This document shows positions 22,270 to 63,966 of a stretch of 64,000 nt of DNA, in pieces; positions within the stretch are counted from its first letter, which is position 1, and each line of letters begins with the position of its first letter. The stretch is from positions 84,072,001 to 84,136,000 of the forward strand of contig OZ024744.1 in NCBI GenBank assembly GCA_964016885.1, given 5' to 3'. The position numbers were made by a program, and so were the translations under genes. This stretch comes from Eledone cirrhosa (lineage: Eukaryota). Below the pieces are notes generated by a model. The model saw nothing but the letters and a program-made list of their open reading frames with translations, was not told where the DNA came from and ran no database searches.

Positions 22270-22554
22270 TTGGTGGTAGTGGTGGTGTTGTTGTGGTGGT
22301 GTTGTGGTGGCGTTGTGGTGGTGTTGGTGGTGGTGGTAGTGGTGGCGTTGTGGTGGCGCTGTTGTTGGTGGTAGTGGTGTTGGCGTTGTTGTTGTTGGTG
22401 GTTGTGGTGGTAGTGGTGGTGTTGTGGTGGCGCTGTTGTTGGTGGTAGTGGTGGTGTTGTTGTGGTGGTGTTGTGGTGGCGGTGGTGGTGGTGGCGGTGG
22501 TAGTGGTAGTGGTGGTGTTGTGGTGGCGCTGTTGTTGGTGGTAGTGGTGTTGGC

Positions 22555-22586
<32 letters not shown>

Positions 22587-24520
22587 TGGTGGTAGTGGTG
22601 GTGTTGTGGTGGCGCTGTTGTTGGTGGTAGTGGTGGTGGTGGTAGTGGTGTTGGTGGTGTTGGTGGTGGTGGTGGTGGTGGTGGTAGTGGTGTTGGTGGT
22701 GTTGGTGGTGGTGGTGGTGGTGGTGGTGGTAGTGGTGGTGTTGTGGTGGCGCTGTTGTTGGTGGTAGTGGTGTTGGCGTTGTTGTTGTTGGTGGTGGTGG
22801 TAGTGGTGGTGTTGTGGTGGCGTTGTTGTTGGTGGTAGTGGTGTTGGTGGTCTTAGTGTTGGTGGTGGTGGTAGTGGTGGTGTTGTGGTGGCGCTGTTGT
22901 TGGTGGTAGTGGTGTTGGTGGTGTTGGTGTTGGTGGTGGTGGTAGTGGTGGTGTTGTGGTGGCGCTGTTGTTGGTGGTAGTGGTGTTGGTGGTGTTGGTG
23001 TTGGTGGTGGTGGTAGTGGTGGTGGTGTGGTGGCGCTGTTGTTGGTGGTAGTGGTGTTGGTGGTGTTGGTGTTGGTGGTGGTGGTAGTGGTGGTGTTGTG
23101 GTGGCGCTGTTGTTGGTGGTAGTGGTGTTGTTGGTGTTAGTGTTGGTGGTGGCGGTAGTGGTGATGTTGTGGTGGCGCTGTTGTTGGTGGTAGTGGTGTT
23201 GGTGGTGTTAGTGTTGGTGGTGGCGGTAGTGGTGGTGTTGTGGTGGCGCTGTTGTTGGTGGTAGTGGTGTTGGCGTTGTTGTTGTTGGTGTTGTTGTTGG
23301 TGGTGGTGTTGTGGTGGCGCTGTTGTTGGTGGTAGTGGTGTTGGTGGTGTTAGTGTTGGTGGTGGCGGTAGTGGTGGTGTTGTGGTGGCGCTGTTGTTGG
23401 TGGTAGTGGTGTTGGCGTTGTTATTGTTGGTGTTGTTGTTGGTGGTGGTGTTGTAGTGGCGCTGTTGTTGGTGGTAGTGGTGTTGGTGGTGTTAGTGTTG
23501 GTGGTGGCGGTAGTGGTGGTGTTGTGGTGGCGCTGTTGTTGGTGGTAGTGGTGTTGGCGTTGTTGTTGTTGGTGTTGTTGTTGGTGGTGGTGTTGTGGTG
23601 GCGCTGTTGTTGGTGGTAGTGGTGTTGGTGGTGTTAGTGTTGGTGGTGGCGGTAGTGGTGGTGTTGTGGTGGCGCTGTTGTTGGTGGTAGTGGTGTTGGC
23701 GTTGTTATTGTTGGTGTTGTTGTTGGTGGTGGTGTTGTGGTGGCGCTGTTGTTGGTGGTAGTGGTGTTGGTGGTGTTAGTGTTGGTGGTGGCGGTAGTGG
23801 TGGTGTTGTGGTGGCGCTGTTGTTGGTGGTAGTGGTGTTGGTGGTGTTGGTGTTGGTGGTGGCGGTAGTGGTGGTGTTGTGGTGGCGCTGTTGTTGGTGG
23901 TAGTGGTGTTGGTGGTGTTAGTGTTGGTGGTGGCGGTAGTGGTGGTGTTGTGGTGGCGCTGTTGTTGGTGGTAGTGGTGTTGGCGTTGTTGTTGTTGGTG
24001 TTGTTGTTGGTGGTGGTGTTGTGGTGGCGCTGTTGTTGGTGGTAGTGGTGTTGGTGGTGTTAGTGTTGGTGGTGGCGGTAGTGGTGGTGTTGTGGTGGCG
24101 CTGTTGTTGGTGGTAGTGGTGTTGGCGTTGTTGTTGTTGGTGGAGGTTGTGGTTGTGGTAGTAGTGGTGGTGTTGTGGTGGTGCTGTTGTTGGTGGTAGT
24201 GATGGTGCTGGTGGTGGAAGTGGTGGTGGTGATGATGACGCTGTTGTTGTTGTTGGTGGTGGTGGTGTTGGTGTAGGTGTTGGTTGAGGTGGTGTTTGTG
24301 GTGTTGTAGTGGTAGAGCGGATGGTGGCGGTGGGACTCATGGTGGTTGTCTTGTTGTTGGCGGTGATGATAGTGGTGGTGCTGATGGTGTTGATGGTGCT
24401 GGTGCTGGTGGTGGAAGTGGTGGTGGTGGAGATGATGTCGTTGTTGTTGTTGTTGCAGGTGGTGGTGATGGTGGTGGTGGTAGTGGTGGTGGTGGTAGTG
24501 GTGGTAATGTATTTGTTGTT
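22270..24520. repeat. (GGT/GTT)-based minisatellite with a 71-bp period
   Basis: The anchor gcgctg recurs at 22891, 22962, 23033, 23104, 23175, 23246, 23317, 23388 and 23459. Confidence 0.9.
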
Positions 24521-31695: not shown

Positions 31696-34600
31696 ATGAA
31701 AACAGGGGGAAAGAGACGATTATGAGGAAGAAAAATTATTTTTTTTCCTTTTTTCTATCTCTCTCTCTTGTTTCTGGGTTAGAAAATGATTAAAATGGAA
31801 TGTTTTACTTTTTGTGAAGTGTTAAGGTATTAGTTGATTTATTTATTATTTAACAATGGCATTTATTTATCTATTTATATATTTAATTATTGTCTATTAC
31901 CGGTTTCAGCATTTATATGCATTATCAAATGATAGTGAAATTTATTAGTGTGGTGTCGCACGTGTTAAACAGAAGGGGCAGAAAGAATAATGTTATATAC
32001 AAACAAGGTTTAAGAAGTGAAAAGAAAAAAGAAAATGAAAAAAAAAACGTGCATAATGTGGAACGTAAAAAGTCAATGTGGGAGAAAAGTTAATGTTATT
32101 TACAAGCACAGTCATTGAAGTTAAGCAGTTCAAAATGTGTTAATATCGCAAGAGTGCTTAGTTGAACCATGGTTCCGTGAAGGAGGCAAATGGTGGACTG
32201 TGGTTTGATATGATTTCCCTTTTTGAAAGGGAGAAATAAGGAAGAATTAAAATCCCTTCAACGCTGGGAAATAAACGAAACCTGGTTCTCTAACTATGAA
32301 ACACTTTTCCAAAAAGAAAACACATCCAAGAACCCCTTCATTAAAACCATAATAACAAGAAAACTCAATCAACACCCAAACAACACACAACAAACAACAA
32401 CAAAAAAAAACAATACCTCCCCACATAGCAACAAAAGAAGGCATCACCTCGCCCCTACCACAACTACCACACGGACTCCCAAGCAACAAATATAGTAATA
32501 GAGAAGCATCAGCTACAAGATAGACACTACAACTTCTCTCCCACCAGGAGAAACCATAGAATTCCCCACTCTTACACACCCCCCCTAACATCCCCACACA
32601 ACAAACCCACAACCATCATTACTTCCAACATAGAACCCAAAATACACAACTACCACACATGTCACACAGGGCCTCACAACCACACTCCAGCTATAAGTAA
32701 ACCCTAATCTACCCTCCCCCACTGACCACACCCTACTACAACAACACCAGCAGGGGACAATACAACCTCACCAAACACCCTAACCACTACAACCACCATA
32801 GCTACACACCATATAACAGCAACAACAGGACTCAATATTAACACACAAGACAAGCCTACTACAACTACCACCAAGTCTAGACACCCTACAACAAGAGCAG
32901 TGCTCAACACAAACCACACGATACAACCCACCTTCAACAACCACCACAACTTCACACCCTATAACCACGTCCATCAAATCTACACACCCTACAACAACAT
33001 CAGCAAGGCTCAATACAACCACACGATACAACCTAAACTCAACACCACCACAACTAGACACCATCTTACAACAACAGCAGGAGCCTATACAACTATAAGA
33101 GACATCCAAACTTCAACAGCCATCACAACTTCCGTAATCATTTTTTAGACACAGCACACAGACACAGGATCACAAGATAACACAAAACACACAGGAGACA
33201 AAAAATGCAATAAAAATTGTCAATTTAACATCCAAAGAATTAACAACAGACCAAATCAACATACTCTCCAAAGGTCTAAACTCCCCAACAACCAAACTAC
33301 CCCGAAATGAAGGAAGATATTGCAGAATTCTGTAGAAAACTAAAACTCAGCGAACAACTATACAACAAATACAATGAGGATGACTCAATAGCCAGAAATA
33401 GAAACAACTACACCCCACCAAAAGGCAAGAATAAATTCCTCGTTCAATTCTGCGAACACATTACTAATTACCCATACCACCATCTACCCAGACATAAACA
33501 AAAATCAAACCTAAGCTAAAAAGAATGGAATGGTCTTAACAGTCTGAAAAATGACAACACCCTAACAATCAAAGAGGCAGAAAAAGGGAGTACAGTAGTC
33601 CTTATGGAGACAGATTGTTACACAACTCTAGTACTCTCAACTCTAGAAAACCAAACATATTATGAAAAGGCCCAACACTACACACAACAGAAAATAATGA
33701 GAAACCTAAAATCCCTAACAACCCTTTACAAAGAAGGCCTTACAGACAAGGAATACAACTACATCACCAATTTCAAAAGCAGAACCAGCCTCTTCTACGG
33801 TTTCCCCAAGACACACAAAAGTGAAGTAATAGGTAGGGCCTGCAAGCAAGCCACAGACATTTACATCAATATAGCCCCTCCTGATGACTTTAAATTCAGA
33901 CTCATAATAGCAGGTACCACATGTGAAACGCACCGCCTAAGCAACTTTATAGATATTCTGCTTACACCTTTCCTTAAACATATAAAAAGCTTCATAAGGG
34001 ACGACCTTGACCTGCTCAACCACCTCCCAACAACACTCAATAATGAACATACCCTACTAGTAACCTTTGATGTCATCAATTTATATTCCAATATCCCACA
34101 CAACCTAGGTACAGAGGCAATACAATTCTGGATGGAAAATTTCCCTAGTGAACTCCCACAGTGCATCCCTAAAGAATTTGTGTTGGAGGGACTCAAATTC
34201 ATCTTGGAAAACAATTTCTTCGAATTCAATGCAAAATACTACAGACATAAATCTGGGACTGCCATGGGCACAAACGTGGCACCCTCATACGCCAACCTTG
34301 TCATGGGATATTGGGAAACCATTCTCTACCGCAAAGTTATAGACAAATTCGGCAACCACTTCTACCAACACATAGAAAAGAACTGGAAGAGATATCTGGA
34401 CGACTGCTTCATCCTCTCGCATGAAAGTATAGATAGACTGTTTGAGTTCAAAACCCTTCTGAATGGGCTCAACACTAACTTACAATTCACAATGGATTAC
34501 AGCCATGAACAACTCCCTTTCCTCGACATCCTCATCAAGAAAACAAGCAACAAAATAGAAACAGACATATCACAAACCCACAGACTCCAAACAATACCTT

Positions 34601-36066
34601 CCATTCAACTCGTGCCACCCTAGACACACCAAAATGGCAATTCCTTATAACCTAGCCAGAAGGATCTGCACAATAGTTTCAGATAAATACACATGCTACA
34701 CACGACTAAGAATTAAAAAATACACTTATCACAGAAACTACCCACCATCCCTAATCACCAATGGATTCCAACGTGCCCTAAAACTAGACATCCAGGAACT
34801 CAGACACCCCAAACCCAGGAGTGAACTGAACAAAAAAACTCTCCATACATCTCCACACACAACCCCCTCAACAATGAGGCATTCGACACCATCCTCCAAA
34901 ACATTCCTTTACTAAAAAGAGACCCAAGAATGAACAATATCCTCCAAACACACAACATCATAAAGAGCAAAAGACAACCCAAATCCATAAAAAACATCCT
35001 CACACAAGCCAAAATCAAACAAACCCTCACAATGAACCCTACAGTAACAAAATGCGGAAGGCCCAACTGTGGCATATGCATAAATCTAATAGAAGGTTCA
35101 ACATTCCATTTTAAACAAGGACAACGTTTCACAGTTAAACACAACTTTACATGTGCATCTGAAAATCTTATCTATGTTTTGACCTGCTCAGGTTGTCAAG
35201 AGCACTACATAGGACAGACAAAAAAAAGCCTCCGTCAGGAATACAGGAAGATTGCATTTAGTGAACATATCGCACATTGTTCTCTCAACCAACATCCAAA
35301 CTTTAAAATTTTCCCCATTTACAAATTCATAGACAAGGCTACTTTCATCCAACGTACCAATAAGGAAACATATTTCATTAATAAATTTCAACCACTACTC
35401 AATGCCCTAATAATCGGACCAAGCTAAAACTGCAGCAATCCATGAAACATTTACAAGAATTACCTCCCGCACACCCTACCTAATCCTTTTTCTTAAATAA
35501 ATTAAATATCACCCAGCAAGAATTGCTTCCCCCTGCATATTAACTCTCTAAAAGGGAAATCATATCAAACCACAGTCCACCATTTGCCTCCTTCACGGAA
35601 CCATGGATCAACTAAGCACTCTTGCGATATTAACACATTTTGAACTGCTTAACTTCAATGACTGTGCTTGTAAATAACATTAACTTTTCTCCCACATTGA
35701 CTTTTTACGTTCCACATTATGCACGTTTTTTTTCCTTTTTCTTTTTTCTTTTCACTTCTTAAACCTTGTTTGTATATAACATTATTCTTTCTGCACCTTC
35801 TGTTTAACATGTGTGACACCACACTAATACATATCACGATCATTTGATAATGCATATAAATGCTGAAACCGGTAATAGACAATAATTAAATATATAAATA
35901 GATAAATAAATGCCATTGTTAAATAATAAATAAATCATCTAATACTTTAACACTTTACAGAAAGTAAAACATTTCGTTTTAATCATTTTCTAACCCAGAA
36001 AAGAGAGAGAAACAAAAAAGGAAAAAAAAAATTTTTTTCTTCCTCATAATCGTCTCTTCTCCCTGT

Positions 36067-39613: not shown

Positions 39614-40647
39614 GCAATCCTGTTTCATGCTGTTAACCATTTAAATGAGTAGTCGGAAATAATATTTGGTTTTTGAAGACATTCTGTAAAGTTTTTGCTT
39701 CGAACCATTGTAATCCAAACGGTTAAATTAAGGTTCGCATTTAACGGTAACATTTTTGTATTCCTAATTTTTTTGTTTATCTTTTATTTTTAAGGATTCG
39801 TGTTTCTTAATCGTTATGCGTTTTTCCTTGCACTGTAGTGTCAGCTTCCATGTTTTTCCACTCATATCTGTATTTTGTTTTGAAAAAATATATTTTTCCA
39901 TATACTATATTTCTTTTGTAAAAACATTTTCATAATACGTTTACTTCATCAACCTCAACTATTGTTTCCCATTTCCATTTTAACAATCAACTTCAGTCAC
40001 TAGTATATCTTTACTGTTTTTCCGCAAACCGACGAGTATTTGCTTCGGTAATCCAATATTTTCCAGTAGGCTCTTTTTATATTAAGTTCTAACTTCTAAT
40101 TGTATAATCCGTCTTCGAACGTAAGCGAGTTACTCCGAATAACAGTTTAAGTTTCAGTTTTCAATTAAGGAAGTACGTACACTAACATAAATATATGCAC
40201 AGTTGTTCATTTCTATTCTCAATTCCGTTCTCTTTCTGCTTAACACCATCATTTGTCTCCCTGACCCCTTCAAAATGTTCCGCTTATAAGTGATTTAACA
40301 CACTTATGAACAATGCTTAACTCTGAAAATTGTATTCGTTTTCTCTCACACAATGCACACCCAACGTATTATAAGTTACTGTTTGTACTAGATAAAAGAG
40401 CAAATTCGTGGAGTTACCTCTCTTTGGCAATTTCTAATAAACATAACATTTTCTGATCAACTCTCCTTTTCTTACGAAAGCTTATCGCTGAATCTCATCC
40501 AGACATTTGAAAATAGACGTCAGAAGAAAGGCTGATTTATTAACGTTTGTGATCATGTGTTCTAATCAAGCCGTCAAACCTAAGGTTTACCATTGATTTT
40601 CTTGTGAACAATTCATAATGCACACACACGCGCGCGCGCGCGCGCAG

Positions 40648-40756: not shown

Positions 40757-40909
40757 TATCATTGGTAGATTGGCAGTATCGACATTTATGATGATCTGAG
40801 TTCAAATCCCGCCGTAGTTAACTTTGCCTTTCATCCTTACGGGGTCGATAAGATAAAGTACCAGTAATACACTGGGATAATTGGTGGCTTTGTGCCAAAA
40901 GTGGAAACA
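40757..40909 (+). mobile_element. tRNA-derived SINE with an (ATT)n tail
   Basis: B-box, core and tail; internally deleted. Confidence 0.85.
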
Positions 40910-40933
40910 ATTATTATTATTATTATTATTATT

Positions 40934-43900
40934 ACAGTTGCATTTATCTTGCTTTATGTTCATACGAGTTATCACCAAGTCACAACTAGTGACCTCAAGA
41001 GACAACAAGGTCCGCCATGTTCAAGAAAGAACATACATACACACACATGCATCTTTAGGTATTTAGACTTGTGATGTACTTATATTGACAGAATCTTCCT
41101 TAGTATATGGGCAGTTCCCATTAGTACTATCTTTTGTATTTCTCCTATACGCGGGTTTCCTGGGATCTGCGATAAGTAATCATTAGACCCCTTAGGTATC
41201 ATTCCCAGAGCGCCTACAACCACTGGTATTGTTTTAATTCTCAATTTCCACAGTTTTCCAATTTCTATCTCCAGGTCCTTATACTTGCTCAATTTTTCAA
41301 ATGTTTTTATAGATACATTCTTGTCTATTTGAACGGACATATCAATTAGCAGGCATACCCTCTTTTTAAAGTCCTTCAGTATTATATCAGGTCTATTTGC
41401 ATCTGTTTTTCGGTCTGTTTGGATGCTAAAGTTCCACAACATTGAGATGTGATCTTTTTCAAGTATGGGAGGTGGTTGATGCTCCCACCAATTCTTTTGA
41501 TGGGGCAGGTCAAAATGTTTACACATTATCCAATGTATGTATTGTGCAGCTCTGTCGTGCCTGTTTAGGTATTCGGTTGGAGCTATAGGACTGCACATTG
41601 AAATTATATGGTCAATGGTCTCTGGTTGTTTTTTACATACATGGCATAATGGGCTGCATCCATTTTTCATTATGTTGGCTTGGTAATTTTTTGTTGGCAG
41701 ACACTGATCTTGTGCTGATATAATCAGTCCTTCAGTCTCCGATTTCAGTCCAGAGGATGCCAACCACTGATGGGTTAAAGTTTTGTCAACATCAGGATTG
41801 TTAGCTCGTTCTGGGTATTTTCCATACAGAGGCTTTTCTTGCCATTTCTTAGCCAGTTTATGTAGCAGTTCTTTCTTTGCAGTTACTTTTACCTGCTTTG
41901 CTTTTTCTGTGTTTTCCATTTCAGCAGTAAATGGGACTTCTGAAATTTGTAGTCCATTACTGTATCTTTGTGCATCTTTTGATGCTTTCGTGTTTCAAAA
42001 CGAGTTTGATCATCCAATCATGTGATTCCCTTAGATATGTAGATAATCCAATTGTTGCAGTATTCAACGCAATTTCTAACTGGATTAACCCACGTCCTCC
42101 TTCTTTCCTAGGGAGATATATTCTATCTGTATCTGCCTTAGGGTGATGCATTCTGTGCATGGTTAAGAATTTTCGAGCCTACGGACTCTGTGCTTGACCA
42201 GTTGATGACATTGTAACTGTAGGTTACTACTGGTATGGCAAGCGTCTTTATGGCATCGATCCTATTCCTTGCATTCAATTCCGTTCTTAAGATTGCTCTT
42301 ACTCTGCGGTAACATTCCTTCCTTATCCTTTCCCTCATTGTCGAGTGCTTGTTTCCGTCTCCTTCACAAACACCTAGATATTTGTAAGTTTCCTCTTGAT
42401 CAAGTTCTCTTATCACATTCCCCCGATCAAGATTAATGTCTGAACTCTTCAGCAGCTTTCCTCTGGTGAACGTTGCTTTGGCGCATTTATCTAGTCCAAA
42501 CTCCATTTTAATGTCATCACTGAACTGCTCCACAGTGGATAATAGCCCTTGCAATTGTTCATCATTTTTTGCAAATAGTTTCAGGTCAACCATGTAGAAC
42601 AAGTGATTAATGGTTTTGTCATAGACTTTATATCCATGCTTTGTTTCATTGAGCATTTTACTTAATGGTATAAGTGCGATGCAGAATAAAAGCGGTGATA
42701 AAGAGTCACCCTGAAACATTCCACAATTAATATTAACTTCTCCAGCTTCCAGTGATTTTGTTTCACTATTCAAAAGGAGTGTCGTTTTCCATGTCTTCAT
42801 ACTGAATGACAAAAACCTCCTGACAACGGGAGATATTTTGAAAATCTCTAAACAATTTTCAATCCAACTGTGTGGCAAACTATCGAATGCTTTTTTATAA
42901 TCTATCCAAGCAATTGATAGATTTTTGTGTCTATTATGACAATCTTCCAGTATCATTTTGTTAACCAAAAGCTGATCCTTACAGCCATATGAGCCTCGTT
43001 TACACCCTTTCTGCTCAATGGGAAATAGGTCATTTGTTATCAGGTGGTCATATGTATATTCAGTTAGGATTGATGTTAAAATTTGTTGTTTCCTCTCGTT
43101 TTCATACCAAGTAATTTCCTGACCGCATTTTCTGTTACTTTGAGGATATTGTTGCATTGCTGAAGGTTCCTAGCCTTAAGTATGGGATGACTTTGTTTAC
43201 CTTAGCTGTTGTTTCTTTTAACTTTTGCCTGTCTACGAATCTTAGGTTCATAGGTATACCTCTATCATTGTTCATTTCATCTACCTCTAAGTTTAGGATA
43301 TCAACCAAATATTGTCCTAGCCGGTCAGCATTCATCTCCTCATCGGCCGTATCTTTGTTCCAGATGTTATTTATTTCAGCATTCAGATCATTGTCTGCTT
43401 CGGATGCTTCCTCAGGTCCATCTACCTCTTCACCTTCATTTCCCACTGGCTCGTTTGCCTGACATACTCCACTCTCCATTTCCAACTTAATCTCTCTGCT
43501 CAGTTCCTCCAGTTACAACTCACTTATCCATCCATTAGTTCTTATTACCCGAGCCTGTCCGGCAAATTTTTGTTCATGTAATTTAAATAGTCCAATCTCG
43601 TTCCAGGTGTTATGCATCCGTTCCCTATAGCCTTTTTCCATGGTGTTACTCTTCTGGTAATATTTCATGACAGTTCTATTCAATTCTTTCGTCCAGTTGG
43701 TTCTTGTCCCTTTCCTTCTTCTTCCTCCAACACCACCAGTATTTGGATGACAGCCAGGTACCTGCTGCTGGGCCAGGGAGCACTTGCTGTGTGAGAATCT
43801 GTCAAATTGCGTTACAGTCTCCCCTTCACCGTTATTCGAACTGTTTAGGTTCGACATTTAAACACTCATATCGAGGATTGGTGAATGTATGGTTACATAA

Positions 43901-44873
43901 CCACCGGTGATTTCATCAACCCCAGTGATTTCATCATCCCCGGTGATTTTAGCGTGACACCACCACGCTGTAGACGAACATAAATAAATAAACAATTAAA
44001 TAGATAAAAACTTTAAAAATAAACATAAGTTTCATTGTAATGTTTGAATGTCTAACTTAGTTTTTTTTTGTTTGTTTGATTTTTTCCTTTACGTTTTTCG
44101 TTTTTCAAGGCCAGTCACATCGGTTACTAGTGTTGTTGTTGCTGCTGCTGCTGTTTTTGTTTTAGCTACGTGGGAAGTAGTGGTTGTTGCGTTGAAAACT
44201 TTTGAAATTTGTTTTTGTCTGTGTTCTGTTCTATAATCTTTCGACTTCTTGCTTATTATTTTTATTATATTATAGTTTAGATTTGACATCGTTTAAACTA
44301 AACATTTTGAGAGAGTTTAGAGTTTAGAGATACAACAACAATAATTATTTTGGTGTTGTTGATGTTGTCTTAGCTGTTTGATCGGGTCACTAAATCAGTC
44401 TATTTATATCTTTTGATGCCTTATTCGCTTATTCATGTGTAGTGGCACTACTACCATCCCTATCTTAACAGGAGGTTGTGAGGTAACAGTGGTTATAGCG
44501 ATGATACAGTGGTGGCGGTGGTGATGGGATAGTAGTACTATAGTGATGGTGTTGCTGCAGCCTGGCTAGATTTTTTGTGGTAGTGGTGTTGGTGGTGGCG
44601 GCGGTAGTGGTGTTGGTGGTGAAATTATTTGGCTGTTGTTCGTAACCATTTTCTTTTTTTACTATAAAATTTCTGATACAAAATTAAATATTAAATATTG
44701 GGGCCCTATGCCAAAATGTGATGCGTTGTCACTCCCTTAGAGTTGAGACTAGTATCTTATGTTCCATTTGTAATAAGGATTATTCTATCACAATTGTTTT
44801 AAATATGTAAAAAATCAAAAACTTACGGGAGCGATTCCATAACACTCTATCCACCATGTGCGTATCTTCCCTG
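40934..44873 (-). mobile_element. R4/Dong-type RLE LINE, copy D1 (chimeric)
   Basis: EQKGC..G.KDQLL, WIDYKKAFD, FQGDSLSPLLF; C..C...ETIDHIISMC and RHD; NRPDI..IDMS (RLE). Flanked by (TAA)n in element orientation. Confidence 0.93.
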
Positions 44874-44905
44874 AATATTATTATTATTATTATTATTATT
44901 ATTAT

Positions 44906-55488: not shown

Positions 55489-55489
<1 letters not shown>

Positions 55490-58400
55490 TTTGAGTTTCA
55501 GTCATTGATGTTAGTTAACTGGAAACTTTGTTGCAATGAATATCAAGCCACTACCTGCAGCGTCAGATATTCAGGACGTATCGGAGGGTTATTGCTGTTC
55601 CCAGCAAGCATGCCTTTTGAAGCGTTCCAAAAAGCGTGAAGGGGCCAATTTTCTTTAACCATCCCTGGAAACTTTTGAGATAGTCCCTATTGCGCCTATG
55701 ACAATCTTTGACTTCATGGCAGTTCCAAATCCTTTTTACCTCCCACTTTAAGTCCTGGTATCGGTTAATTTTCTCCCTCTCCTTCTCTTGCACTCTCGTG
55801 TCGAATGGGCAGGCCACATCCACAATCACGCACGATCTTTTTTTTTGTCCACAACCACCAGGTCAGGTCTATTGTGTTCCAGTTTCTTGTCCGTCTGTAT
55901 CCTAAAATCCCACAGCACCTTCACCTGATCGTTCTCTATCACCGACTCTGGCTTATGCTCATACCACTTCTCAGAATGTGGTAAATTGTTTACTTTGCAT
56001 AGGTGCCAGTGGATCACCCTGCCCATCACATCATGTCTCCAGCCCTTATAGTGAGTCTGGGCTAGGTGTTTACACTCGGATACAATGTGAGCCCCAGTCT
56101 CCTCTCTCTCTCCACAGATCCTGAACAGTGGGCTAGCCTCCCCCTTGTAAATATGGTGTTTCAACCACTTCGTTTTGAGGGCCTGCTCCTGCGCAGCCAT
56201 TAACATTCCTTCTGTAGCCTTTTTAAGATCTCCTCTTTTCAACCAGTTCCATGTCTGTGGATCTCTGAATTCAGTTTTCTCAAAGAAGGTACTATGAAGG
56301 GATTTTTCCTGAAGGCTGCTCTTTCGCCATGATGTTATTTCCTCCTTGGACATCCCCTGGTCTATTGTCCCCTCCTTCAGTACAGTTATGAGCATTGGCT
56401 CCTTACTATCAGTCACGTATTTGTGAAGTTTTTTTTTCTCCATCTGAACACAGTCCTCTATGCTGATAAGACCTCTTCCACCTTCAGATCTCCTTAAGTA
56501 GAGTCTATCGACATCACTCCTCTTGTGGAGCATGTTGTAGATAGTCAATAGCTTCCCAGTCTTCCTATCCATTTCTTTTTGTTCAGCAACATTCCATCTC
56601 AGAATTCCTGCACTGTACCTAATAATAGACACAGCTCGGGAATTTACTGCACTTATGGCATTCCTACTGTTCAGATGTGACTTTAATACGCTCCTTACTC
56701 TCCGAATGTATTCAGTTCTTATCAATTCCTTCATTTTTTTTTGTTCTTGATGTCATCAGCGTCCAGAACACCCAAATACTTGTATCCTTCTTCAGAGTCA
56801 ATTTCCTTTATCATCTCACCTGTTGGTACCTGCATTCCGTTACTTCTGCTCAATTTACCCCTCTTCATCACAAGGACTCCACACTTACTAATACCAAATT
56901 GCATACATATATCGTTGCTGAAAATACGGACAGTGTCAACAAGCACATCCAACTCCTTCTCACTCTTCCCGAAGAGCTTAAGATCGTCCATGAAGAGGAG
57001 GTGATTGATGGTAAGCCCTCCCTTTCCCAACCTGTATCCTGCTCTCACTTTTCGCAGTACACTGGTCAGGGGCATCAGGGCAAGGACAAACAATAGAGAG
57101 GACAGACTATCTCCCTGGAAGATGCCTCTCTTGATCTTCACGCTTCCCAAGGATTCTCCAGTTGATGTTAACTCTGTTTCCCAGGACTTCATATTTTTGC
57201 CCAACAACTGTCTGATCTTATCTGCCACCTTGAAGATCTCCAGGCTTTTGGTAATCCAAGAATTAGGCACCATGTCAAATGCCTTTTTGTAGTCTCTCCA
57301 TCCCATGGCAAGACCAATATGTCTCCTCTTGCAATTCCTCATTACCATCTTATCAATAAGTAACTGGTCCTTTGTACCACGTGACCTCTTTCGGCATCCT
57401 TTCTGTTCGTCCGGTAACAAGTTGTTTGTGTGGAGGTAATGGTAGATTTCCTCAGACATAATTCTTGTCAACCGTTTCCACATTACGGACAGACATGTGA
57501 TAGGTCTATAGTTGGTAACATCATTACCCTTGATTCAGTCTTTCATTACCAGAACTGTGGTACCTTTTGTCAACCACTCTGGTGCCTCACCTGACATCAA
57601 GCAGTCATTGAACATGGTTGTCAGTTTCGGGTGGAGGGATGTTATATTTTTAATCCAATACCCCTGCACACCATCTGGGCCTGGTGATTTCCAGTTGGTT
57701 AGATTTTTGGCCTGCCCCTTAAGAGTTTCGACTGTGATACTCAAATCAGTTTGTTGGTGTGCCTGTTCACAAATCTCCTTATGTACTGTCTCAATCCACA
57801 CTGCCTGGTCATTATGTTTAACATACTGCTCCCATATTCCTCTCCAGAATGCTTTAGTTTGTTCCGCCTCAGGGATCAAGTCGTTGCCTCTTTCTTTCCC
57901 TTCAAGCTGTCCAAACAGCATCTTCTGGTTGTTGTCAAACATGCGGTTCTGTCTATACTGACTGACTCTGTTCTCGTATCGCCTGATTTTTGCACTCTTT
58001 GCTACAATGCGTGGCTTCAGTTCCTCTATGATAATATTTAGCTTTTTCCTCCTAGTTTTGTACTCTATTTCCAGTTTATTTTTAGTGTCTATTTTTTTAA
58101 TGTCCCATTCAGTAGGAACTCAAGCTTTCCAATGTCATTTCTCATTTCCCTGATTTGACCACTCAGTCGTTTCTTCCACCAAGGCTCTGATCTTTCTTGT
58201 TTGTTGTTTCCTCTCGCTTTTATACCAAGTAGTTTCCTCACCGTATTTGCTGTTGCTTTGAGGATATTGTTGCACTGGTGAAGGCTCCTCGCCTCAAGGT
58301 ATGGGATGACTTTGTTTACCTTAGCTGTTGTTTCTTTTAACTTTTGCCTGTCTACGAATCTTAGGTTCATAGGTATCCCTCTATCATTGTTCATTTCATC

Positions 58401-60434
58401 TACCACTAAGTTTAGGATATCAACCAAATCTTGTCCTAGCCCGTCAGCATTCATCTCCTCATCGGTCGTATCTTTGTTCCAGATGTTATTTATTTCAGCA
58501 TTCAGATCATTGTCTGCTTCGGATGCTTCCTCAGATCCATCTACCTCTTCACCTTCATTTCCCACTGGCTCGTTTGCCTGACATACTCCACTCTCCATTT
58601 CCAACTTAATCTCTCTGCTCAGTTCCTCCAGTTACAACTCACTTATCCATCCATTAGTTCTTATTACCCGAGCCTGTCCGGCAAATTTTTGTTCATCTAA
58701 TTTAAATAGTCCAATATCGTTCCAGGTGTTATGCATCCGTTTCCTATAGCCTTTTTCCATGGTGTTACTCTTCTGGTAATATTTCATGACAGTTCTATTC
58801 AATTCTTTCGCCCAGTTGGTTCTTGTCCCTTTCCTTCTTCTTCCTCCAACACCAGCAGTATTTGGATGACAGCCAGGCCCCTGCTGCTGAGCCAGGGAGC
58901 ACCTGTTGGGTGAGAGTCTGTCACATGATATTCTAGTCACCTTTTCACCGTTATTCGAACTGTTTAGGTTCGACATTTAAACACTCTTATCGAGGATTGG
59001 CGAATGTATGGTTACATAACCACCGGTGATTTCATCACCTCCGGTGATTTCGTCACTCCCGGTAATTTTTGTGTGGCATTATCACGCTGTAGACGAACAT
59101 AAATAAACAAACAAACAAACAGGCAAAAAAAAAACCAAAAATGAATAAGCATAAGTTTCATTGTAATGTAATGTTTGAATATCTGACTTAGTTTTTCCCT
59201 TCCCTTCTCTGTCCGTCTGTTTGTTTTTCTCTTCATTTTTCTTTTCTTTGCGTTGTTCGTTGTTGCTGTGCTGCTTTGATTTTTATTTTTGTTTTTTTTT
59301 TATATTCCCGGGTCATCAATTCAGTCTATTTATATAGTTTGATGCCTTCCTCTTTTAGTGGGGACACTACGATCTAGCAGGGGTTAGCGGGAGAGAATAG
59401 CGGGGGTAGTGATAATGAGGCAGTAGTGGTGGTGGTGGTGGTGGCGGTGCTGTGCTAGTAGTACCTAGCAGGAGGTAGTGGGAGAGAATAGCGTCGGTAG
59501 CGATAATGAGGCAGTGGTGGTGGTGATGTGATCGTAGTACTGTAGTGATGGTGTTGAAGTTGTAGTAGAAATAGCGGTTGAAGCAACTTGACCAGTGTTT
59601 TTAGCGTGGTAGTGGTGGTGGTGTTGGTGGTGAAATTATCTTTAGCTATTTAGCTACTTAGTCATTTTGCCATTTTTCTCCTTTTCGACTCTAACATTCC
59701 TGATCCAAAATTAAATATTAATCTTGTATATTAAAATTGTCTAGTTATACCGCCACCTTCCCCTTTCGTAAGTTAACAGAAGGTAATGGGGAATAGCGGT
59801 GGTAGCACTGAAGGAGTGGTGGCGGCGGTGATGGGATAGTGGTAGTAATGATGGATGGGTGGTGGCGGCGGTGACTGTAGTGATGGCGTTGTCGTTACTG
59901 AGTTTTGTTGAATAGACTGTATTTTTGTTTGATCGGTGAATCTATGGGGTTAGTCGCGTATATGTGTTGACATATTTTCTTAATATTGGAAGTAAACATT
60001 TTGTAAAAACTTGAGACAATAATAATAGTAATTATAATTATTATGCTGGGATTGGTGGTGGTGCTGGTGAAATTGCCGTTATCTGGCTGTTGTATTTAGT
60101 GTACACAGAGGAGTGATGGGGTAGGTGGTGTATCTAGTTTGTGGTGTTGGTGAAATTGCTGTTATTTGGCTGTTCTATATAGTGTAGACAGAGGGGGTTT
60201 TCTACCATTTATAACCATTTTCTTTTTTGAATGTAAAATGTATATTACAAAATTGAATATTTGAGCGATATAACAATATATTATGGATCCGAATTTTCCT
60301 GAGGCTTGCGTCTGGTGCTTTATGCATCATTTGTACTAAGAATTGTTATTTCACAATTGATTTAAATATGTTAAAATCAAAAACTTACGGGAGCGATTTC
60401 ATGACCTTCTTTCCACCATGTGCGTCTTCTTCCC
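55489..60434 (-). mobile_element. R4/Dong-type RLE LINE, copy D2, full length and frameshifted
   Basis: KSPGPDG, YRPITCL, QGDSLS, FMDDLKL, YKYLG, RHD, HNRPDL..IVDVACP. (TAA)n flanks. Confidence 0.94.
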
Positions 60435-60487
<53 letters not shown>

Positions 60488-60496
60488 GTTGTTATT

Positions 60497-63400
60497 CCTT
60501 GAATCTCAGTCATTGATGTTGGTTAACTGGAAAGTCCGTTGGAATGAATATCAAGCCACTACCTGCAGCCTCAGATATTCAGGACGTATCGGAGGGTTCT
60601 TGCTGTTCCAAGCAAGCATGCCTTTTGAAGCGTTCCAAAAAGCGTGAAGGGGCCGATTTTCTTTAACCATCCCTGGAAACTTTTGGAGATAGTCCCCAGT
60701 GCGCCTATGACAATCGGGATCACTTTGACTTCATGGCAGTTCCAAATCCTTTTCACCTCCCACTTTAGGTCCTGGTATCGGTTAATTTTCTCCCTCTCCT
60801 TCTCTTGCACTCTCGTGTCGAACGGGCAGGCCACATCCACAATCAGACACGATCTTTTTTCTTTGTCCACAACCACCAGGTCAGGTCTATTGTGTTCCAG
60901 TTTCTTGTCCGTCTGTATCCTAAAATCCCACAGCACCTTCACCTGATTGTTCTCCATCACCGCCTCTGGCCTATGCTCATACCATTTCTCAGAATGTGGT
61001 AAATTGTTTACTTTGCACAGGTGCCAGTGGATCACCCTGCCCATCACATCGTGTCTCCAGCCCTTATAGTGGGTCTGGGCTAGGTGTTTACACTCGGACA
61101 CAATGTGAGCCACAGTCTCCTCTCTCTCTCTCCACAGATCCTGCACAGTGGGCTAGCCTCCTCCTTGTAGATATGGTGCTTCAACCACTTAGTTTTGAGG
61201 GCCTGCTCCTGCGCAGCCATTAGCATTCCTTCTGTAGCCTTTTTGAGGTCTCCTCTTCTCAACCAGTTCCATGTCTGTGGATCTCTAAATTCAGTTTTCT
61301 CAAAGAAGGTACTATGAAGGGATTTTCCCTTAAGGCTGCTCTTCCTCCTTGATGTTATTTCCTCCTTGGACATCCCCTGGCCTACTGTCCCTCCTTCAGT
61401 ACAGTTCTGAGCATTGGCTCCTTACTATAGGTCACGTATTTGTATAGGTTGTTTTTCTCCATCTGAACACAGTCCTCTATGCTGATAAGACCTCTTCCAC
61501 CCTCAGATCTCCTTAGGTAGAGTCTATCGACATCACTCCTCTTGTGGAACATGTTGTAGATAGTCAATAGCTTCCTAGTCTTCTTATCCATTTCTTTTTG
61601 TTCAGCAACATTCCATCTCAGAATTCCCGCACTGTACCTAATAATAGACACAGCTCGGGAATTTACTGCGTTTATGGCATTTCTGCTGTTCAGATGTGAC
61701 TTCAATACGCTCCTTACTCTCCGAATGTATTCAGTTCTTAACAATTCCTTCATTTTTTTGTTCTTTATGCCATCAGCCTCCAGAACGCCCAAATACTTGT
61801 ATCCTTCCTCAGAGTCAATTTCCTTTATCATCTCACCTGTTGGTATCTGGATCCCGTTACTTCTGCTCAACCTACCCCTCTTCATCACAATGACTCCATA
61901 CTCCTGCCTAGCAACTGTCTGATGTTATCTGCCACCTTGAAGATCTCCAGGCTTTTGGTGATCCAGGAATGGGGCACCATGTCAAATGCCTTTCTGTAGT
62001 CTATCCATCCCATGGCAAGATCAGTGTGTCTCCTCCTGCAATTCCCCATTACCATCTTATCAATAAGTAACTGGTCCTTTGTACCACGTGACTTCTTTCG
62101 GCATCCTTTCTGTTCGTCCGGTAACAAGTTGTTTGTGTGGAGGTGATGGTAGATTTCCTCAGACACAATGCTCGTCAACAGTCTTTCATTATCAGAACTG
62201 TGGTACCTTTTGTCAACCACTCTGGCACCTCACCCGACACCAAGCAGTCATTGAACATGGCCGTCAGCTTCGGGTGGAGGGATGTTAAATGTTTAATCCA
62301 ATACCCCTGCACACCATCTGGGCCTGGTGATTTCCAGTTGGTTAGTTTTTTGGCCTGCCCCTTAAGAGTTTCAACTGTGATACTCAAATCAGTTTGTTGT
62401 TGTGCCTGCTCACCGATCTCCCTCTGTACTGTCTCAATCCACCCTGCCTGGGCATTGTGTCTAACATCCTGCTCCCATATTCCTCTCCAGAATGTTTTAG
62501 TTTGCTCCGCCCCAGGGATCAAGTCGTTGCCTCTTTCTTTCCCCTCAAGCTGTCCAAACAGCATCTTCTGGTTGTTGTCGAACATGCGGTTCTGTTTATA
62601 CTGACTGACTCTGTTCTCGTATCGCCTGATTTTTGCACTCTTTGCTACAACGCGTTGCTTCAGTTCCTCTATGATAATATTTAGCTTTTTCCTCCTAGTT
62701 TTGTATTTTATTTCCAGCCTATTTTTAGTGCCTATGTTTTTTAGTGTCCCATTCAGTAGTGACTCAAGCTTTCCTATGTCATTTCTCATTTCCCCGATTT
62801 GCCGACTCAGTCGCTTCTTCCACCACGGCTCTGCTCTTTCTTGTCTGTTGTTTCCTCTCGCTTTTATACCAAGTAGTTTCCTCACCGTATTTGCTGTTGC
62901 TTTGAGGATATTGTTGCACTGGTGAAGGCTCCTCGCCTCAAGGTATGGGATGACTTTGTTTACCTTAGCTGTTGTTTCTTTTAACTTTTTCCTGTCTACA
63001 AATCTTAGGTTCATAGGCCTCCCACTATCATTGTTCAATTCATCTACCACTAAATTTAGGATGTCAACCGAATCTTGTCCTAGCCCGTCAGCATTCATCT
63101 CCTCAGTGGCCGTATCTCTGTTCCAGGTATTATTTATCTCAGTATTCAGATCATTGTCTGCTTCGGGTGGTTCCTCCGTTCTCAGGACCTCTTTACCTTC
63201 ATTTCCCACTGGCTCGCTTGTCTGGCATACTACACCCGCCATCTCCAAGCCATTCTCTCTGCTCAGTTCCTCCAGTTCCAGCTCGCTTATCCATCCATTA
63301 GTTCTTATTACCCGAGCCTGCCCGGCCAATTTTTGTTCATCTAATTTAAATAAACCAATCTCGTTCCAGATGTTATGCATCCGTCTCCTGTAGGCCCTCT

Positions 63401-63752
63401 CCTTGGGGTTACATTTCAGGTAACATTGCATTACAGTTCTATTCAATTCTTTCGTCCAGTTGGTTCTGGCCCCTTTCCTTCTTCTCCTTCCTCCAACATC
63501 AGCAGTATTTGGTTGACAGTCAGGTTCCTGCTGCTGAGCCAGGGGGCACCTGTTGGGTGAGAGTCTGTCACATGACGTTCTAGTCTCCATTTCACCGTTA
63601 TTCGAACTGTTTATGTTCGATATTTAAACACTCTTATCGAGGATTGGCGAATGTATGGTTACATATCCATCTGTGGATCCACCATTCCACTTGGCCCTTG
63701 TGTGGCATTATCACCACGCTGTATACGAACACACATAAACAAACAAACACAC
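60497..63752 (-). mobile_element. R4/Dong-type RLE LINE, copy D3, with two internal deletions and a short 5' end
   Basis: Homologous to D2. ORFs 62175-63590, 61382-61888 and 60571-61146. (TAA)n flanks. Confidence 0.93.
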
Positions 63753-63773: not shown

Positions 63774-63959
63774 AAGGGCGGTGGATTGGCAGTATCGGTA
63801 GAGGGTCGGACGCCATGCTTTCCAGCATAGTTACGTCCCTTTACCATCTGAGTTCAAATCCCGCCGAGGTTGACTTTGCCTTTCATCCTTACGTGGTCGA
63901 TAAAATAAAGTACCAGTAATGCACTGGTAATTGCTGGCCTTGTGCCTAAAGTAGAAACA
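63774..63959 (+). mobile_element. tRNA-derived SINE in (ATT)n
   Basis: A-box-like TGGCAGTATCGGTAG, B-box GAGTTCAAATCCC, core, and a tail ending AGAAACA(ATT)n. Confidence 0.9.
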
Positions 63960-63966
63960 ATTATTA

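Follow-up and report, generated by a model that had tools for sequence, protein, structure and literature searches.

Retained introns are known from Penelope-like elements. In Penelope of D. virilis, a 75-bp intron situated 46 bp downstream of the start site is required for reporter expression (PMC2377424), and a 398-bp 5′-UTR intron is described for Chlamys-3_cRei (PMC8557442). Intron retention has been treated as a Penelope-like peculiarity, possibly tied to an unusual mobilisation (PMC8557442). Human L1 carries splice sites inside its 5′ UTR; the lineage is maintained by unspliced RNA, and the splicing that gives rise to SpIREs is a dead end in which promoter sequence is lost (PMC5860796). 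In TART, introns were described in the antisense RNA, mostly of 50–100 nt, and are cited there also for L1 and Tad transcripts (PMC1636488).

Elements of the Dong/R4 clade have a single ORF with a reverse transcriptase (RT) and C-terminal restriction-like motifs and sit in (TAA)n (PMC7998251, PMC3774820). The 5′ end of Bombyx Dong is defined by an HDV-like ribozyme (PMC3774820), a Dong consensus has been noted for Octopus bimaculoides (PMC9115989), and a conserved RTE/R4 5′-UTR domain, related to the Ceph domain, has been described (PMC5786205). The word "intron" is absent from the main text of PMC3774820 and PMC9115989. More generally, an intron in R4/Dong is reported nowhere in the open-licence literature that we searched; the statement in an earlier note on this DNA, that retained introns mark Penelope-like elements and were not known in R4/Dong, agrees with these sources.

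Here we analysed a window of 64,000 nt of Eledone cirrhosa (contig OZ024744.1, positions 84,072,001 to 84,136,000), in which two Dong-like LINE copies, D1 and D2, carry a GT-AG segment of 0.86–1.3 kb ahead of the ORF. The segment is real and family-wide. Judged from its sequence, it is probably part of the element's own 5′ end and a lineage-specific, spliceosomal intron of the 5′ UTR that is retained as in Penelope. As in Penelope and Chlamys-3, such an intron would lie in the 5′ UTR and persist in genomic copies, and the 46 bp ahead of the Penelope intron resemble the 46-nt exon 1 of D2. Penelope-like elements differ in their GIY-YIG endonuclease, their pLTRs and their introns of 75–751 bp, which were shown by RNA (PMC2377424, PMC8557442), whereas D1 and D2 appear to be LINEs of the restriction-like-endonuclease type, with a longer insert and an intron predicted from sequence. 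GIY-YIG was absent from the D1–D3 fragments in Pfam searches, and no terminal repeat (pLTR) was seen in the self-comparison of the window. Like human L1, D1 and D2 have splice sites, here predicted ones, inside a LINE 5′ UTR; unlike in L1, relatives lack the insert, and their leader is what splicing would bring back. TART is a further non-LTR element with introns, differing in that its introns are antisense.

Retroelements with TAA/ATT tracts between them form a nest in the last 24 kb of the window: the Dong-like copies D1, D2 and D3 on the minus strand and Tx1/L1-like copies on the plus strand. All three Dong-like copies are flanked by TAA tracts, and (TAA)n is the target described for R4/Dong (PMC7998251). 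The D2 body (55489..58976, minus strand) consists of a broken single ORF with RT, zinc-knuckle-like and restriction-like motifs and a 3′ UTR ending in (TAA)n, and a (TAA)n tract (60435..60496, minus strand) separates the 5′ end of D2 from the 3′ end of D3. This third copy, missed in the earlier two-copy account, is of the majority type (60497..63752, minus strand) and keeps the acceptor. It starts inside the pyrimidine tract, directly after (TAA)n, at 63752, 34 nt above its acceptor CAG at 63719 (the same CAG as in D1 and D2), and is likely a 5′-truncated copy. The 5′ end of D1 lies at a (TAA)n tract (44876..44905, minus strand). D1 is a chimera: its ORF matches D2 for ~780 nt, a 5′ part (43082..43857, minus strand) that has 18 minority alleles in common with D2, one of them a premature stop, and from 43082 on it is fused to the RT-to-3′-end part (40935..43081, minus strand) of a different Dong-like family (~38–53% amino-acid identity). 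No TAA tract is present at the fusion point 43082, where a template switch or a deletion may have occurred.

A D2 fragment matches RVT_1 of Pfam (E 1e-16), and the full-length homologues, of 1.1–1.2 kaa, also have RVT_1. For one of them, P0001, the nearest solved structures are R2 proteins. At the C terminus of the D2 and D3 fragments and of the homologues we saw, by eye only, motifs that we take to be a CCHC knuckle and a PD-(D/E)xK-like endonuclease; Pfam gave no match for them on the window fragments, and zf-RVT matches on the homologues were weak. A ribozyme such as that of Bombyx Dong was not found in the window: Rfam returned none for positions 40000–64000 at E ≤ 5, nor for 20 relatives at the gathering score, searches that divergent forms could escape. 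HDV, twister and hammerhead readings of the leader motifs were tried by eye and dropped.

Other repeats were observed in the window. A SINE-like repeat of 130–200 nt occurs at 40794–40934, at 63776–63965 and in about eight other places, adjoining TAA tracts in the two places read. A broken Penelope-like element with an RT and a weak GIY-YIG lies at 33604–35427 (plus strand). A 2-kb minisatellite with a 71/142-nt unit (22271–24312) has a CAC-rich strand that resembles the interior of the D1/D2 insert, which is probably a low-complexity similarity.

Both D1 and D2 begin directly after (TAA)n, have CCC|GTAAGT 46–49 nt into the element and have a T-rich tract followed by CAG 110 nt before the ORF ATG. 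In D2 (all minus strand), the predicted exon 1 of 46 nt (60389..60434), whose first and last bases close a predicted stem, is followed by a predicted intron of 1302 nt (59087..60388; donor 60388, acceptor 59087) and by a 110-nt exon-2 leader with 18-nt repeats (58977..59086) that ends at the ATG at 58976. The corresponding features of D1 (also minus strand) are a predicted exon 1 of 46–49 nt (44827..44875), 87% identical to that of D2, a predicted intron of 859 nt (43968..44826; donor 44826, acceptor 43968), and a 110-nt exon-2 leader (43858..43967) before the ATG at 43857. The donors, acceptors and start codons of both copies, the two intron lengths and the D2 exon-1 length had been given in the earlier note, and all were confirmed.

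The donor GTAAGT is the best consensus match among the GT sites of the leader (50 in D2, 47 in D1), preceded by the exonic bases CCC, not MAG. The hexamer occurs 29 times in the window on both strands and arises in 707 and 828 of 10,000 shuffles of the first 200 nt (7–8%); alone, it is modest evidence. A strict filter (a T-rich tract and no AG for 60 nt) leaves 11 of 3411 YAG sites, one of them the D2 acceptor, and the predicted D2 intron has no AG for ~96 nt above this acceptor. The D1 acceptor, with an AG at −45, 24% A and a pyrimidine tract weaker than that of D2, fails this filter. Donor and acceptor agree with the consensus of U2-type spliceosomal introns, strongly so in D2. Four of the 11 strongest acceptor-like sites are at the 3′ ends of Tx1-like copies (2709, 50936, 52182 and 55370, plus strand). 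No canonical CTRAY branch point was found within 130 nt of the D2 acceptor, and the nearest approaches to one are only CTAAG at −105/−93 and TTAAT at −32 in D1. The longest stop-free stretch of the predicted D2 intron, which contains internal duplications, is 77 codons. A 16-nt motif at the donor gave eight matches to viral contigs, none beyond 20 nt, and was discarded as chance.

We aligned the N-terminus of D3 with 11 homologues and, with this alignment, retrieved 80 related loci; 33 were examined with the 5′ part of the ORF, 17 of them with a visible upstream repeat boundary. Leaders in these 17 distant relatives are short and continuous (5–394 nt), and none has a donor–acceptor pair. The D1 and D2 blocks found no match in the 80 loci. 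The exon-2 leader of D2 is homologous to the 3′ half of the relatives' continuous 5′ UTR, and the best match to the relatives is given by D1: its exon-2 start matches the leaders of L022 and L026 (85% over 27 nt, E 0.011) and is the best window match of a relatives-only profile (E 0.082). Only when the exons are joined does this profile extend to exon 1, by 6 nt. Just before the point homologous to the acceptor, the relatives carry CTAG, from which the acceptor AG could have descended.

A covarying three-helix motif was observed in the 5′ UTRs of L005, L017, L022, L025 (twice), L037, L062 and L066. In these eight copies from seven loci, 82% of the cells are paired, with 13 double changes, and neither value is reached in any of 500 shuffles; the structure was drawn by eye from the same eight sequences, which biases the covariation upward. 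A scan of three of the loci (L005, L017 and L022) gave no Rfam family for it at the gathering score. This mid-UTR motif may be the RTE/R4 5′-UTR domain of PMC5786205. The start of D1 exon 2 matches the 3′ half of the structured domain, and, compared with the relatives that bear it, the motif in D1 and D2 appears diverged and split by the insert. In a second family of relatives (L001, L002, L006, L009–L011, L014 and L015), a short, A-rich hairpin motif without an Rfam match is present in the leader, in one to four copies.

Whether the insert splits the relatives' domain was addressed by sliding the join point along each block with exon 2 fixed and ranking the donor among all join points (906 in D1, 1349 in D2). 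On three measures, chosen after looking, the donor join is in the top 0.3–2.3%. For sequence likeness to the relatives' upstream half, it ranks 4/906 in D1 and 31/1349 in D2, with the unspliced side at 639 and 1005, and the likeness is matched by 50/6000 and 187/6000 background positions, respectively. For a stem whose closing falls exactly on the join and, as in the relatives, one base ahead of the next hairpin, it ranks 3/906 and 6/1349, on a measure for which only three of eight relatives' own sites score 0.4 or more. For pairing across the junction, the ranks are 17/906 and 4/1349, the first of 37 and 42 GT joins; in D1, 172 of 2000 shuffles pair as well, and in the relatives the cross-junction stem is significant at none of nine sites (46–500 of 500 shuffles as good). 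With a covariance model of the relatives, neither exon was recovered from the window (best E 2.6). These join tests are modest singly and post hoc, and D1 and D2 are related copies; together they are suggestive.

The divergence of the two copies was called intron-like evolution in the earlier note, in that the segment varied between conserved ends and a conserved ORF. The differing lengths and the conserved ends were upheld; the contrast with the ORF is inflated. Over 58287–58886, D1 and D2 are 96–100% identical, and above that 85%. D1 has the letter of D2 at 18 of the 25 sites where the majority of run X1 (see below) and D3 differ from D2, including the premature stop, a pattern suggesting that the two, both dead and neighbours, exchanged sequence by conversion or recombination. 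Since D1 and D2 have a dead ORF haplotype in common, the conservation of the ORF is not independent. At the 5′ ends, exon 1 is 87% identical, the first 60 intron nt 88%, the last 110 intron nt 89% and the exon-2 leader 86%, which suggests a fair baseline of about 87%. The two inserts are collinear homologues (71% over the first 184 nt, 67–78% in the middle, 87.5% in an island and 79–89% at the end) whose interiors were reshaped by large duplications and CAC-rich slippage. Such divergence would fit an intron, and equally any non-coding spacer.

It is rather unlikely that the segment is instead a fast-evolving internal promoter or spacer, with splice-like sites that are incidental or harmful leaks as in human L1. 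This would account for an interior that changes by slippage around a preserved 40-nt island with TATAAA (59309..59348, minus strand; 87.5% identical to D1 44383–44422), of which a further variant occurs in loose ends of runs X7 and X4, and for intron-side ends that are conserved no less than the exons (88–89% over 60 and 110 nt, versus 86–87%). The shuffle frequency of GTAAGT and the lowered retrotransposition that follows 5′-UTR splicing in L1 (PMC5860796) also agree with it. It leaves unexplained the strong consensus sites at both borders, where the halves of the relatives' leader appear to rejoin, and a variation at the acceptor that is limited to CAG and TAG. The intron reading of the earlier note gains comparative support, from the short leaders of the relatives, the halves that appear to rejoin at GT/AG and the YAG kept in four variants, while its argument from intron-like evolution is weaker than stated.

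Reads of other samples (runs X1, X7, X13 and X4; X13 is genomic, the type of X1 is not on record) were aligned to 58300–60446. Thousands of raw X13 reads run on from 60435–60439, most of them in ATT repeats, and show several variants of exon 1, so that the 5′ end of the block is defined and multi-copy. Across the acceptor, the depth stays level (34.8k/33.8k/31.6k in X1, about 124/123/123 in X13), which indicates that D2-like copies are unspliced in both runs, with the proviso on the type of X1. The acceptor YAG is kept in all variants seen: CAG in D1, D2, D3 and an X7 contig, TAG in four X1 contigs. No joint 59086–60389 was present among the 15 of 58 joints listed for the four runs, from which rows near the masked repeat 59091–59155 were left out, and no exon-1 sequence among the 15 of 43 loose ends listed. 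An X7 contig whose alignment ends at 59085 was considered as a splice junction and ruled out, being an unspliced D3-type acceptor. Run X11 gave no alignment.

These reads bear on whether only the acceptor belongs to the element, splicing onto upstream host or neighbour transcripts, with the block as a TAA-associated passenger or a captured host exon and intron. We consider this quite unlikely. No TAA tract separates the block from the acceptor in D1 and D2, whose 5′ ends differ by ~13%, and an X7 contig with a D3-type leader extends 80 nt above the junction (30 nt of them seen), although D3 itself has its 5′ end just above the acceptor and next to (TAA)n. Ten X13 reads that carry the acceptor and 13 nt before a repeat tract, and not the ORF, would also agree with an acceptor-only origin, as would the weak likeness of exon 1 to the relatives. 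The summed X1 depth, a rough measure without copy number, is 40–87k at the block start, below the 141–173k at the ORF start; by this measure there is no sign of a free-standing block in excess of the ORF, nor of the outcome that the earlier note held against its own reading, a block found mostly without the Dong ORF. A local accident of the nest, in which a single chance fusion was multiplied by duplication, as the common dead haplotype and the duplicated neighbouring Tx1-like elements (95–96% identity in the self-comparison) might suggest, is highly improbable given 5′ ends that are only 85–89% identical between D1 and D2 and that meet (TAA)n in thousands of reads, in several sequence variants and in other samples.

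Predicted splicing would lower the number of upstream ATGs from 17–19 to 5–7. It would also bring the exon-1 ATG of D1 and D2 into the frame of the ORF; this frame is open for 46 codons in D1, to the TAA directly before the ORF ATG, and stops after 6 codons in D2. An in-frame TAA directly precedes the ORF ATG in D1, D2 and D3. The exon-2 leaders vary in length by multiples of 3 (110, 110 and 95 nt, with read variants of −36 and −60), so that the leader is possibly a uORF with stop–start coupling; the 18-nt repeat unit could be an alternative cause. The sequence around the start codon is highly conserved (58941–59005 in D2, the same in D1 and D3) and has two small hairpins; this stretch folds weakly (z −1.2 to −1.7), and no compensatory pairs were found in it. 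The ATG at 58976 is replaced by ATA in about 31% of the X1 depth, and at a second in-frame ATG, at 58943, the base giving ATG makes up about 96%.

Under the favoured reading, that of a retained 5′-UTR intron, the intron would have been gained in the Dong-like lineage of D1 and D2, inside an older structured 5′-UTR domain, and its splicing would give back a short leader as in the relatives. A Pol II promoter may span exon 1 and the start of the intron, and splicing would affect part of the Pol II RNA that begins at the element's 5′ end. The spliced RNA would plausibly be the main message, the opposite of human L1, in which 5′-UTR splicing leads nowhere (PMC5860796), and the unspliced RNA would be copied back to yield complete daughter elements. 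The earlier proposal that unspliced RNA is the insertion template fits the genomic copies, which are unspliced through the acceptor. Spliced daughters would lose promoter or regulatory sequence, die out and so be rare, a logic shown for the SpIREs of L1 (PMC5860796) and proposed for Penelope (PMC2377424), and no special mechanism protecting the intron would be required. A more specific version is conceivable, though we hold it doubtful: the intron might sit between two helices of the conserved 5′-UTR RNA domain, and splicing might act as a switch between a translation-competent leader, with an exon-1 uORF ending on the stop before the ORF, and an unspliced template. Such a switch would mean that a target-primed LINE divides the roles of its RNA in the manner of a retrovirus.

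If the intron reading is true, a LINE of the restriction-like-endonuclease type retains a lineage-specific intron, and selection on the 5′ end alone would be enough for an intron to survive round after round of reverse transcription. An R4/Dong lineage would, moreover, be able to use a long leader of Pol II type where Bombyx Dong uses a ribozyme. The Dong intron would then make it simple to test how message and template are kept apart in a LINE.
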